From the NCBI RefSeq assembly GCF_036365525.1, contig NC_090384.1, positions 71,261,715 to 71,325,714 of the forward strand: DNA of 64,000 nt. Direction: 5' to 3'. The notes beneath the pieces were generated by a model. The model saw only the letters and a program-made list of their open reading frames with translations, did no database searches and was not told the origin of the DNA. The translations under genes were made by a program, and so were the position numbers. Every line of letters begins with the position of its first letter. Within the stretch, counting starts at the first letter, position 1. Source of the stretch: Heterodontus francisci. Lineage: Eukaryota. This document shows positions 5,146-25,054 of this stretch, piece by piece.

Positions 5146-5379
5146 TTTCTGATGTATCCTGGACCACAGGTGTTCCTGAGCAGTGGAGCAATTTGCAGGT
5201 TTGGGAATGGCTACAGTTCTGCTGTGATCAGTAAAAACTAGATGCAAACTCCATTCCCTTCGCTGAGTTCAATATTAATGGCAGTCAGCTTTGCAGCATG
5301 AGTCAGCAGCAGTTTATCAGCATAGCTGGGCATTATGGAGAGATCCTTCACAAGATTCTGCAGCAGATAAAAGACAGAG
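5146..5379 (+). CDS. ELF5: ELF5-like exon, Pointed/SAM domain (234 nt, phase 1/1, internal TAA)
   Basis: ttgcttcAG|...AGA G|GTTAG; translates [76 protein letters not shown], against the recalled ELF5 motif [15 protein letters not shown]...FNISGLQLCSM. Confidence 0.9.
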
Positions 5380-5810
5380 GTTAGAGCTATCATCTTTGTT
5401 TTACATGAAGTTCAACAGTTAGAAAAAACAAAATTGACAGTCATAACAAAGGACACGGCAAAAAGCTTCTTCTCGTGGTACTTTCAGTTAACTCACTGGG
5501 AAAATACACTGCCTGATGTGATGTTGTGAGCTATGCAGACCAGAAATATCACAGCTTTGATTCTTGGTCTATGCTACGTTGGCTGATCATAGCCATGGCA
5601 ATGTTAGGGGAACTACAATTGACTTTAATGACCTCTGGAATGTCAGGAGGAAAATTAGCTCAGGTTCCTGATTCTGATCACTATATGGCGACCCTGCTGA
5701 AAAGTGTGTTTGTGTGGGTGTCAGGTGAGGACAGAAGTGAGTTCAGCTGTGATACACCACCCCGGCCCATCATGGTTGAGGAATCGGCTGAGCCTCACTA
5801 CCTAGATTCA

Positions 5811-6570
5811 CATAACTATACAGTAAATGGAAAAGTCCTGGGAAAATTGATGGACAGAGAGATTTGGGTGTTCAGGTCCATTGTTCCCTGAAGGTGGCAA
5901 CGCAGGTCAATAGAGTGGTCAAGAAGGCATACGGCATGCTTTCCTTCATCGGACGGGGTATTGAGTACAAGAGTTGGCAGGTCATGTTACAGTTGTATAA
6001 GACTTTGGTTCGGCCACATTTGGAATACTGCGTGCAGTTCTGGTCGCCACATTACCAAAAGGATGTAGATGCTTTGGAAAGGGTACAGAGGAGGTTCACC
6101 AGGATGTTGCCTGGTATGGAGGGCGCTATCTATGAAGAGAGGTTGAGTAGATTAGGATTATTTTCATTAGAAAGACGGAGGTTGAGGGGGGACCTGATTG
6201 AGGTGTACAAAATCATGAGAGGTATAGACAGGGTGGATAGCAAGAAGCTTTTTCCCAGAGTGGGGGATTCAATTACTAGGGGTCACGAGTTCAAAGTGAG
6301 AGGGGAAAAGTTTAGGGGGGATATGCGTGGAAAGTTCTTTACGCAGAGGGTGGTGGGTGCCTGGAACGCATTGCCAGCGGAGGTGGTAGACGCGGGCACG
6401 ATAGCGTCTTTTAAGATGTATCTAGACAGATACATGAATGGGCAGGAAGCAAAGAGATACAGACCCTTAGAAAATAGGCGACATGTTTAGATAGAGGATC
6501 TGGATCGGCGCAGGCTTGGAGGGCCGAAGGGCCTGTTCCTGTGCTGTAATTTTCTTTGTTCTTTGTTCTT
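5811..6570 (+). mobile_element. CR1/HER1 LINE, 5'-truncated 3' end
   Basis: ORF 5864-6490 with LVRPHLEYCVQFWSPH...LERVQRRFTRM...RLRGDLIEVYKIM; TTCTTTG-repeat tail. Confidence 0.92.
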
Positions 6571-7242
6571 TATTAGAAGAAAGGCCACCAAGTTGAAGCA
6601 CTGAAAGATTGCTGTGCTAGCAATCTTTTAGCAGACTGGGGGAGAAAACTGGAGAAAAAGGATTCTTCCATTTTTGACCCAGTCACCTGGAAGGTTACCA
6701 TAGGAAAACAATAGAACATATCAGGGAAAGCTGGAGATATACACAATGGCTCTGCTCACATCAATACAACAGAATTTTTCCCTCAACATCTGTCATTCAA
6801 ATTTCACATTCAAAACATTTTTGTACCACACTGCCAATTTTCTTTTGGCCAATGCTTCTTGGTAACATTTACTGACTTCTGTGCTTATTGCAGTGTGAAT
6901 GGGAATCATTCTTCAAGCCTTGTGTATTCCACTTCAGCAGCAAGGGCAAAAATATTTTCAGGACCTGTTGTCAATGCCATGTAATCTGCAGACAATGGGT
7001 TGAATTTTACTTGTAAGTTGCAGGTCCCGACATCAGGACCAGAAACAGGTGCGCCTTCTGTTTGAGGCAATGAGCAACCAGCTGATCACGATAAAGTGGC
7101 GGGTGGACAATTAAGAGTCAGGAGGCGCGGGGCCATTCAGTGAGAGGACGGAGGTGGGAGTGGAGGTGGTGAAGGCGGCATCGGATGGCATCGCAGAAGC
7201 TCCTGGCGCTGTATTTAAAGGGCTGCCAGCCCTGCATTCAAT

Positions 7243-7330
7243 GCTGTCTGCTGTTCCAGAGCCCCTGTCTGACTACTGCCTGCTTTCCAGAGCCCCTGTC
7301 TGACTGCTGCCTGCTGTTCCAGAGCCCCTG
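7243..7330 (+). repeat. Three copies of a ~31-bp tandem repeat
   Basis: ctg(c/t)ctgct(g)ttccagagcccctg(tctgact) repeated three times inside the Harbinger 5' region. Confidence 0.85.
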
Positions 7331-7795
7331 CATTCAGTACTGCCAAGGATCTGATCGGAAGCCTGCAGGCAGAATGGCAGGATGAAGACCTCAGGTGGCC
7401 CCATAGTACAGTGATGCCTCCCTCCAGACTCTGCTCCAGGCTGCAAAGGAAAGGTGGGAGATCCTCTTCCCCAAGGATGGGAGGAGTGACCAGCCTGCCT
7501 GACCAAGCAAGCCTGGATGCAGATAGTGGAGCAGGTTAGTAGCCATGGGGTCACCCCAGGACCTGGATCCTCTGCTGGAAAAGGGTCAATGACCAGATCT
7601 GGTCTGCCAAGGTGTGTGCGCCATACACTTCCCACCCTTTGGGCCTAGTTTGTGTCAGAACGAGAGGGTGCATTTGGTGGAGAGGGAGTGACAACCCAGC
7701 CGTTGACAATTGTGTTAGGGAGTCAGAAATCTTGCCTGAGGCATGGCTGTATATCAGTGAGAGGTGGCCTTCTGTCAGTGCATTCCCCTGCATAG

Positions 7796-8588
7796 CGTGA
7801 TGGAATCTGTGGTTGCAAAGCTTGTTTTTTTTCAGACCCTAACTGAGAGCGAAAATAGAATTGAAACAAAAATGGAACCTAAAAGCTGAAACAGGAGCTG
7901 GAAAAACAACTTCTGACTTCCAGGGAAACTGACACTGGTTAGAACCAGATAAAAGGAGACAGAGTCCTCCCCACTTCAGGCAGGAATGGAGCACCAGCAA
8001 ACAGAATAAAGTGGAGACTGAATCCAGGAGCTGTTTCTGTTACTTAAAGTAGCCAATTAATCAGACCTGGCCTTCCAGTGCACAGGTTGTCACTGAAAGA
8101 CTCAGATAAAGGGAAGACTAGTACATCCATGACATCAAGACTACCATGAGCAGAGCTGAGGTGGTTCTGGAGAAGTGCACCTTGTCGTGAAGACCGCACC
8201 GTGGAGTTCAGATTGAGAGGGAACTGCTGTTGGAAGAAGAACAATGGCTAAATTCTTGAAGAAAAGAACTGAAACTCTACCTGAGGAACTTCAGAGCTGT
8301 GAAGAACTGTGCAACTGTAATTGTTGCCATATATGCTGAGTGGACTGCCCAATAAAACAATGAGACACATCTCTGTTGTATCTGATAATTAAGGTGTAAT
8401 TTGTAATATATATGTTGACTGTAATCTGTCTGTTGCTTCATATTTAATTTATGTTGGTTTTAGTTTGAGTGTTAAAGTAAAATTTACAGAAGTGAAATCT
8501 TGTCCTTTTGGTTTGGTTTCCTAAATTGGAGTCAGTTGGCGGATTCGATTCTTTTTGTTTGTTGGTGGTCTCCTTGGGGATCATAACA
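7796..8588 (+). mobile_element. Solo LTR inserted in the Harbinger element
   Basis: (C)GTGATG...CATAACA termini with 4-bp TSD ATAG (7792-7795 and 8589-8592); internal AATAAA. Confidence 0.75.
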
Positions 8589-23231: not shown

Positions 23232-23477
23232 GTTAGAGGTTATTGCCAATCTAATCACATTTAAATAGTAAAATATTCCACAAAACTCAAACTGAGATTG
23301 GTTCATGTAGGTCGTTAGCTTCAGAGCACAGTGGAACTAACATTTAAGCATGAAACTGACTTTGCTGTTGGCTAACCTGTTACCTAAATTGGATGTAGAA
23401 GAGAGAATATTTGTATTTTCCAAGACATAATAAGATTTCCTGATAAACAAGATTCTTATTTCTGCTTTCTCCCGAAG

Positions 23478-23673
23478 GTTTTCAAAGTCAGTATCTTTGG
23501 GAATTTGTTCGTGATATTCTGCTGTCTCCTGAAGAAAGCAATGGCGTTTTGAAGTGGGAAGACAGAAATGAAGGAATTTTCAAAGTTGTAAAGTCTGATT
23601 CTCTGGCAAAACTGTGGGGTCAAAGAAAAAATAATGAACGTATGACCTATCAGAAACTTAGCAGAGCACTGAG
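23478..23673 (+). CDS. ELF5: ELF5-like exon, ETS domain N-terminal part (196 nt)
   Basis: ctttctcccgaAG|...[75 protein letters not shown], open frame. Confidence 0.93.
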
Positions 23674-23903
23674 GTAACAATGTGCTTCTCCAACAAGTAG
23701 CAAAGCATGTTTAGTTGCACTTCAAAACAAAAAAGAACAGAAATTGTCTCTTTGGTTTGGTTGCTAGTATTCTTGCCTCAGAGTCAGAACGTTGTGAGTA
23801 GGTGTATTTTAATTTTGATCAGGAGGGTTTTTTGAGGACAATTTCTGTTCGCATTGTTAGAGATTTTCCTGCACAAATCACACCTGAATTAACTTTTAAA
23901 AAT

Positions 23904-24167
23904 CTTTCTTTGGTCTCCTTATCTTGAGATACAATGGGTAAGTGCCTGGAGGTGTTCAGTGGTGTGTGGAGCAGTGCCTGGAGTGGCTATAAAGGCCAAT
24001 TCTAGAGTGACAGGCACTTCCACAGGTGCTGCAGAAAAATTTGTTTGTCGGGGCTGTTACGCAGTTGGCTCTCCCCTTGCGCCTCTGTCTTTTTTCCTGC
24101 CAACTGCTAAGTCTCTTCGACTCGCCACTCTTTAGCTCCGCTTTTATGGCTGCCCGCCAGCTCTGGC
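23904..24167 (-). mobile_element. RTE LINE 3' end in the last ELF5 intron
   Basis: Reverse complement of about 4530-4795; TSD TTTAAAAAT (23895-23903 and 24168-24176). Confidence 0.88.
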
Positions 24168-24969
24168 TTTAAAAATGGTAACATGTTAAAAAGAGGACAC
24201 TAAAACTTATCTCCTGAAACTATTTATTGGTGCAGTAGAACTAGGACCGAACCATGTTCTCTAGCCCTAAAGCACTTCACCTTGATGAATAGATATACAC
24301 AATAAACTTACATTTGGTTGGCAAGCTGGTAGGAAGTTCCCTACCAGGATTAATGAACATCAGCATGAGAGTGAACTCTAATCATTTTAGAAGGCCAGAG
24401 ACTGGGTACAGAATGACATAGGCTGAGAACAGGCTGCCTGTGCATACTCTTAGTGGTTGTGGATGGTACATGGTGCAGAGACTGAACAAGGGAAGGGGAA
24501 CCTAAATCAATACATTGCAAAAGTAAAGACAAATACCTGAAATTTTCTCGGAGCTACCTTTGCTTCACCATCATAATGATGAAAGTGTGGTGAGAAACCT
24601 GTCTACATGTGGTTTTTACCACAATTTTGATACAGTAATAGCAGCCCAGCAGCAGAAAATCTGTGTTAAGTTGCTGTAGGCCCAAAGGAATCTCACCATT
24701 AGAGAGATACAGTTGGTACTATATAGCTTGAGGGGTACCACTCCTCAAGTGTGGGGCAAGACAAGGATGCAGATCTCCATGAACCCACGCTATTGCCACC
24801 TTTCTGCACTATATGCTAGCTGTCTAGTCAACTGAGCTAACCAACCTCCCCTCTGTTAAGTGCTGGTGGCTAAATAATGTCAATAATACTTGATTAGCAC
24901 ATTCAGAGAGGGAAATAAATATTACAGTGGTCCAGAAGTCGCATCACATCATTTTATTTTGCTTTTCAG

Positions 24970-25054
24970 ACATTATTACAAAACTGGGATTCTGGAACCA
25001 GTGGATGGACGGTTAATGTACATGTTTGGAAAGACTACGCATGGCTGGAGATAA
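24970..25054 (+). CDS. ELF5: ELF5-like terminal coding exon, ETS domain C-terminal part
   Basis: ttttgcttttcAG|A CAT...; (R)[27 protein letters not shown], in phase with the previous exon; AATAAA at 25246 and 25275 followed by a GU-rich tract. Confidence 0.92.

Follow-up and report, generated by a model that had tools for sequence, protein, structure and literature searches.

A 64,000-nucleotide (nt) stretch of the horn shark (Heterodontus francisci) genome on contig C14 (NC_090384.1, positions 71,261,715 to 71,325,714; hereafter the window) carries, in the order BTB-kelch gene, ELF5, RAG1, RAG2, a copy of the ETS-family gene ELF5 that is interrupted by a stop codon in its Pointed (PNT) domain. 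The break is real and lineage-specific, and it is accompanied by a remnant transcript that encodes the ETS domain only. On balance we favor the reading that horn shark ELF5 is a recently disabled gene that is still transcribed and from which an exon-skipping product escapes decay. The observations counted for it are the premature stop in a single-copy exon, linker exons that were not found, departures at 7 of 58 conserved ETS columns, loss of the basic residue equivalent to K404 of ETV1, and a second splice join, seen in sequencing run X7, that provides no in-frame ATG.

The Pointed exon reads QFCCDQ*, with the codons CAG TAA AAA and without any change in length, exactly as described in an earlier reading of the sequence alone (hereafter, the original prediction), which had also given the length and phase of this exon correctly. 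Contigs of 4 sequencing runs (X5 to X8) were searched; all 4 runs come from one sample, their label as RNA is a guess, and contigs drop variants. The X5 contig over 5220–5382 carries the TAA, with 0 other letters and 0 gaps relative to the window, although this support consists of one low-depth contig (2.7) from one sample; the ETS contig of the same run has a depth of 57, and depth does not equal expression level. The stop is therefore confirmed as present in the sequencing data and did not arise in assembly. The idea of an intact gene with an assembly error, which a single substitution in an otherwise clean exon might bring to mind, is largely refuted by this contig and fits poorly with the unchanged length and with an observed spliced form that skips the Pointed exon, and we consider it very improbable. 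The Pointed exon is single-copy in the assembly, and the disabling lesion is thus in the only copy of the full-length frame. The ELF5-type Pointed exon upstream of the ETS exons is present but interrupted (SAM_PNT, 82 bits with 1 TAA), and no open frame running through Pointed, linker, and ETS, as in a functional full-length ELF5, was found at this locus.

By its sequence affinities the locus is ELF5 and neither EHF nor ELF3, as the original prediction had proposed pending a phylogeny. The labels ELF3, SPI-type, KBTBD4-like, and galeomorph are used here presumptively, some of them by resemblance. Two trees were built on the ETS domain only (94 columns). Tree 1, from which Xenopus ELF5 was left out because its ETS motif was unread, separated the ELF5 and EHF sides at 100/100 and placed the window gene in a chondrichthyan clade at 97/99. 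Tree 2, with 11 rows removed and 15 added, recovered an ELF5 group (98/97), an EHF/ELF3 group (96/89), and again the chondrichthyan clade with the window gene (96/87). Searches with Heptranchias ELF5 by tblastn matched the Pointed exon (E 2e-41) and the first ETS exon (E 4e-33) far beyond chance, Pfam recognized SAM_PNT in the former and Ets in the ETS exons, and the best PDB match of the ETS domain was that of human ELF5 (1wwx). The closest proteins are the Pristiophorus, Heptranchias, and Pristis records titled "ETS homologous factor" and Callorhinchus ELF5, in all of which Pointed is intact. The gene has the RALR helix and a wing one residue shorter than that of EHF. The NCBI name of its product, EHF, was ruled out as an identity because there is no RAMR helix, no longer wing, and no grouping with EHF in the trees; this placement with ELF5 shows that the name is wrong, and a separate EHF-type gene lies at C14:26.2 Mb. 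Domain order, wing, and RALR helix are those of vertebrate ELF5 (ESE-2), for example XP_067849623.1 (Heptranchias), XP_051885370.1 (Pristis), UPI00398F0AB4 (Pristiophorus), and V9KUB4 (Callorhinchus). The horn shark gene differs from the chondrichthyan orthologs in the Pointed stop, the unfound linker, an ETS-only form that starts from an ATG in a first exon (E1), and 4 private ETS changes.

Spliced contigs of the locus were present in 2 of the 4 runs. Within 23330–23790, contigs of X5 and X7 cover the first ETS exon and both run on into the start of the second; the lack of such a contig in X6 and X8 carries no weight. At the 5′ loose ends of the 2 contigs, 30 letters of each were seen, and 20 and 19 of them were searched against the window. 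Each matched once, X5 at 3322–3341 and X7 at 20341–20359, with a GT donor directly after each exon. The 573-letter X5 contig joins 3341 to 23478 and continues at 24970, so that exon 2 and the Pointed exon are both skipped. This join of E1 to the ETS exons yields a 94-residue ETS-only frame starting at the ATG at 3338, which is identical to NCBI XP_067902546.1 (Heterodontus francisci, named EHF); that record may derive from the same RNA and is not independent support. The Pointed-less, ETS-only mRNA, which the original prediction had envisaged as a possible dominant-negative isoform, thus exists, by another route than the one proposed. Skipping 5146–5379 alone, which would join exon 2 to ETS and encode 131 amino acids (aa), was not seen in the run contigs; the observed join starts at 3341 and uses a different ATG. 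The 3 spliceable exons first described all stand, and the ETS exons are open with intact AG/GT flanks, although the list was incomplete, having missed E1 and exon 2. Were E1 joined to exon 2 instead, the ATG at 3338 would be out of frame, opening a 4-codon frame that overlaps the ATG at 4189. The X7 join (20361 to 23478) has no in-frame ATG, and its transcript is likely non-productive. The last 3 letters of the X5 Pointed contig fit the intron and the first ETS exon alike and are uninformative on the splicing of that exon. Among proteins of 113–2000 aa, no longer horn shark form of the locus was found, and the only record found is the 94-residue form.

A simple mechanism could reconcile these observations. 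By the established 50–55 nt rule, the stop at codon 68, well before the later junctions, would make any Pointed-containing mRNA a target of nonsense-mediated decay, and such mRNAs would be removed. In the form without exons 2 and 3 the single stop lies in the final exon; this mRNA would escape removal, which would explain why it was assembled and annotated; a stable ETS-only mRNA is thus expected whether it is useful or not. Its product would be a bare ETS domain, without Pointed or linker and with weakened DNA contacts. The loss is likely tolerated since 4 other ESE-type genes with open ETS exons remain among the 5 ESE-type ETS loci of the genome, including a Pointed-less ELF5 paralog. The original prediction had offered a dying gene and an ETS-only isoform as alternatives; they are not exclusive, because a dying gene with a premature stop retains the skip product as a stable mRNA.

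The stop might instead be a rare or heterozygous allele of one animal, in a species that keeps full-length ELF5 and makes the ETS-only mRNA as an ordinary minor form, comparable to isoforms 3 and 4 of the human gene. Apart from the stop, the Pointed exon is unspoiled, at 85% identity to Heptranchias (67–85% across chondrichthyan orthologs), the single sample and the dropping of variants from contigs leave room for such an allele, and the phases of the Pointed and ETS exons permit a 209-residue frame without a linker. However, the stop, the unfound linker, the 4 private ETS changes, and an ATG overlapping the old start are unlikely to come together as one allele, and the sole protein record found for the locus is the short form. 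Such a private allele therefore seems improbable to us.

The linker exons of other sharks were sought with local and frameshift-aware scans of 5380–23477 on both strands, and nothing was found. The best scores were 24–35, against shuffled means of 26–36, whereas 27-residue Pointed controls scored 113–145. A genome search with the Heptranchias linker gave 0 matches among 2 candidates. The exon ending at 20361 was considered as a decayed linker and rejected, since its scores of 11–23 are below background. These exons are accordingly described as not found, and their deletion is not proven: the scan would catch a shark- or chimaera-like linker (49–160) and would miss one with ray-like divergence (26–37).

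Changes in the ETS domain were assessed against 127 proteins. The ETS domain could be read in 113 of them: by their helix motif 89 were ELF5-type and 23 EHF-type, and the remaining one was the query. Four substitutions, E60Q, R77P, R80G, and K85M, are private to the horn shark, occurring in 0 of 85–89 ELF5-group and 0 of 23 EHF-group proteins. The departures listed in the original prediction (LEPVD, MYMF, and RHYY) held in part: R77P and K85M are private, E60Q and R80G were overlooked, and 2 others are normal in sharks and were rejected as signs of decay. RHYY is present in all 4 other cartilaginous fishes, with H68 in 26 of 87 ELF5-group proteins, and M83, the first M of MYMF, is common to 3 other elasmobranchs (4 of 86 ELF5-group proteins). 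The stop at 25052–25054 was likewise rejected as a lesion, as the Pristiophorus, Pristis, and Callorhinchus proteins also end at GWR. Altogether, the window ETS departs at 7 of 58 highly conserved columns, compared with 0–4 in 64 other ELF5-group proteins, and Pointed departs at 1 of 29, the stop itself. The 2 densities do not differ (Fisher p 0.26), as uniform decay of the whole gene predicts, and would fit one recent loss of constraint over the entire gene. Private changes in ETS (of 93) number 10 in the horn shark, 5 in Heptranchias, and 4 in Pristiophorus, and in RAG1 (of 1017) 50, 37, and 31, respectively, which suggests a modest ETS excess relative to RAG1; the first ETS exon is 79–88% identical to its chondrichthyan orthologs. 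Matching positions by offset from the recognition helix equates Q60 with D387 and P77 with K404 of ETV1. According to PMC4447949, DNA binding of ETV1 is undetectable with K404A and affinity is retained with D387A. The K404-equivalent is K or R in the other 8 of 9 wings read from the horn shark genome.

Several results weigh against disablement, beginning with the blind spot of the linker scan for ray-like sequence. None of 18 relative-rate tests was significant (lowest p 0.057). The open ETS frame retains W48, K52, R64, R67, Y69, and Y70. There is no missense change at the other 28 conserved Pointed columns, so the stop may be younger than the ETS changes. Of 144 representatives read (of 147 newly listed), a set biased by the query, 74 have Pro and 56 have Arg at position 77, and the 2 Pro77 proteins that were looked up are from arthropods; the commonness of Pro77 there weakens the claim that R77P certainly kills binding, and the change need not abolish it. 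G80 is present in the Pointed-less paralog on C41 and Q60 in the SPI-type genes of the genome. For 3 of the 4 private departures the new residue occurs 3 or more times in natural ETS domains, where 17% would be expected of random changes (P 0.016), in a set biased by the addition of the SPI-type genes after E60Q had been noticed; at a threshold of 5, only 1 of 4 is natural (P 0.39).

Alternatively, the gene may have been remodeled into a working ETS-only factor, for which E1 supplies the ATG and the Pointed and linker exons have been freshly abandoned. Lacking an activation region, such a protein would sit on GGAA sites and would compete with EHF, ELF3, or SPI-type factors, its flank preference possibly shifted by E60Q. 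Canonical splicing, a poly(A) signal, a sequence resembling a TATA box, and the A at −3 of the ATG are consistent with it, as are ETS-exon contigs in 2 of 4 runs, the retained core DNA-contact residues, and the natural state of most departures. So is a Pointed-less ELF5-like family kept from chimaera and sharks to frog. However, an in-frame ATG in 21 open codons would, by our estimate, arise by chance about 1 time in 4, and a five-codon upstream open reading frame (ORF) overlaps the ATG at 3338. The only candidate at 35–112 aa (1 of 1) is the horn shark record itself, so no similar short protein was found there in another species, and no representative exceeds 75% identity to the 94-residue protein. 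The natural Pointed-less family keeps an N-terminal region of 115–210 residues as well as E60 and R77, the basic residue equivalent to K404 is lost here, and the 94-residue protein is a predicted product. We regard a working factor as possible but less likely than decay.

The helix Gln deserves separate mention. The class III (SPI-type) Gln is found at Q60 as a single residue in a domain that is otherwise ELF5; position 60 is never Gln among the 144 representatives read. It presumably corresponds to Q226 of SPI1, a match supported by the motif MTYQK, which the 4 SPI-type loci of the horn shark genome share. According to PMC4447949, Gln at the ETV1 387 position is restricted to class III ETS proteins, and the reverse change, SPI1 Q226E, gains affinity for ETS1-like sites according to a review (PMC13757776); both are compatible with a working factor. 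It is conceivable, and in our opinion unlikely, that ELF5 has been rebuilt as a minimal 94-residue ETS-only factor with a PU.1-type Gln that competes at SPI-type sites, a domain loss and specificity switch in progress. In that reading this Gln would be the mirror image of the SPI1 Q226E tumor mutation, in a gene that other galeomorph sharks seem to have lost.

Returning to a decaying gene, known systems offer partial parallels. Transcribed unitary pseudogenes combine a single-copy ortholog and a premature stop with an intact promoter and splice sites and residual transcripts; the horn shark locus differs in that a whole domain stays in frame in one of its spliced forms. In human ELF5, isoforms 3 and 4 likewise splice out the Pointed exon and keep ETS (PMC4704400), but their N-terminus is the usual one and full-length ELF5 is present alongside them in larger amounts, whereas in the horn shark exon 2 is also skipped, another start codon is used, and this haplotype has no full-length frame. 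The same paper states that in cell lines isoform 3 behaved as the full-length protein does and not as a dominant negative; that a Pointed-less ELF5 works in human cells favors a working factor. It also offers the precedent for competition, ETS1 p27, which keeps ETS, lacks Pointed and activation domains, and competes for DNA; p27, however, comes from an intact gene, its ETS domain is unchanged and its activity demonstrated, whereas the horn shark form is a putative competitor. The Pointed-less paralogs (C41:28.93 Mb; XP_060705555.1, Hemiscyllium; XP_078094515.1, Mustelus; XP_042200971.1, Callorhinchus; XP_075695089.1, Rhinoderma) resemble the horn shark product in their ELF5-type ETS, lack of Pointed, and Gly80, and differ in forming a separate clade (99/94), in their conservation across distant species, in a long N-terminus, and in intact E60, R77, and K85. 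Human Pointed-less ELF5 isoforms and the 94-residue NCBI model are already known; searches of the open-access literature listed no title on the broken exon, on ELF5 in sharks or its loss, or on the family of Pointed-less paralogs.

Table 1. Features of the horn shark ELF5 locus, in window positions.
Feature	Position	Strand	Basis
TATAAAA, candidate TATA box, 33 bases 5′ of the inferred 5′ end of the spliced contig	3217..3223	+	Sequence; promoter role putative
First exon E1, GTGAGT donor at 3342	3250..3341	+	End observed; start placed from 92-letter loose end, colinearity assumed
Upstream ORF, five codons, TGA overlapping the ATG at 3338	3324..3341	+	Sequence
ATG in the last four bases of E1 (ATG-A); the join of E1 to 23478 puts it in the ETS frame	3338..3340	+	Sequence
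Exon 2, open, with ATG at 4189; originally the first coding exon; absent from the observed join	4185..4303	+	tblastn E 1e-12, 72% to Pristiophorus
Pointed-domain (PNT) exon, 234 nt, phase 1/1, AG/GT flanked	5146..5379	+	tblastn, Pfam SAM_PNT
TAA replacing conserved Tyr; codon 68 from ATG 4189; 145 nt before exon end	5232..5234	+	
18-kb interval, at least 40% of it repeats; linker exons known from other sharks not found here	5380..23477	+	
Second upstream exon, with GTAGGA donor, joined to 23478 in the X7 contig	20312..20361	+	Start inferred
First ETS exon, 196 nt, open, AG/GT flanked	23478..23673	+	
E60Q codon, recognition helix, first ETS exon	23651-23653	+	
Second ETS exon through its stop, open	24970..25054	+	
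R77P codon, second ETS exon	24998-25000	+	
R80G codon, second ETS exon	25007-25009	+	
K85M codon, second ETS exon	25022-25024	+	
AATAAA, close to the point where the X5 contig would end (~25254 if colinear)	25246..25251	+	Sequence
RAG1, intact neighbor on the strand of ELF5 (context, outside ELF5)	38472..41606	+	

RAG1, which is intact, lies beside the gene, where the original prediction had placed it. Heptranchias ELF5, which is intact, and RAG1 have consecutive accessions, which suggests that the 2 genes are adjacent there too; the adjacency is likely old. It therefore tells nothing special about the broken state, and the tie between ELF5 and RAG1 is one of adjacency, nothing more. On the same contig, the EHF-type gene (26.2 Mb) and catalase (29.7 Mb) both lie 41–45 Mb from ELF5 (71.3 Mb), an order unlike that of tetrapods, in which CAT, ELF5, and EHF adjoin one another. 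The long ELF5 intron contains a fragment with a DDE_Tnp_4 transposase match (9713–10297, − strand), presumably of Harbinger type, and the 3′ untranslated sequence after the ELF5 stop (25052–25078) resembles the C-terminal extension of the Heptranchias protein (KPLFTSQL versus QKPSATSQL). Bacterial promoter and tandem repeat scans of the window were uninformative, and small shares of matching words in soil and marine sequencing runs carry no weight as evidence.

Elsewhere in the genome, the C41 gene (C41:28930843-28933851) has an ELF5-like ETS domain and no detectable Pointed exon; none was found in the 200 kb upstream or among the best 15 genome-wide SAM_PNT matches. It groups with the Hemiscyllium, Mustelus, Callorhinchus, and Rhinoderma (frog) proteins, which have Ets but no SAM_PNT and whose records are titled "uncharacterized", "EHF-like", or "ETS translocation variant 1". 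To judge from the ETS tree, this clade looks like an unnamed vertebrate ESE subfamily. The window gene was considered as a member and falls outside it. About 35 kb upstream of the C41 ETS exon (L080:3543-5624) lies a 694-codon open frame with zf-BED and hAT dimerization domains. A further EHF/ELF3-like gene with Pointed and ETS (C18:6056749-6075424) groups at 99/95 with Callorhinchus and Pristiophorus proteins, and two SPI-type ETS genes lie about 0.24 Mb from it. Some 80 kb away from the ELF3-like gene there is a weak catalase-like match with a stop (C25:33625295-33625465, E 3e-4), possibly the remnant of a duplicated catalase. The paddlefish record XP_041074010.1 (Polyodon spathula) is an ELF5-like protein of 169 aa with Ets and without SAM_PNT, a possible further loss of Pointed in the ELF5 group.

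In the best 120 of 448 matches, no more than four chondrichthyan taxa were represented by a full-length ELF5. Hemiscyllium and Mustelus proteins are present in the searched collection, and searches with the window ETS exon at 35–112 and 113–2000 aa returned no other galeomorph. Annotation, as distinct from genomes, thus hints at ELF5 loss in other sharks, and the gene may be dispensable in elasmobranchs. Mammalian ELF5 controls epithelial cell fate (PMC4704400), and the role of the Pointed domain in ELF5 is unsettled. If the gene is indeed decaying, the horn shark would represent an intermediate stage of a possibly repeated loss of ELF5 in elasmobranchs, and would illustrate how a premature stop combined with exon skipping leads to a misleading short database protein under a wrong name. 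If the ETS-only form works, it would provide a natural test of a bare ETS domain and of whether one helix residue shifts an ELF factor to PU.1-type sites.

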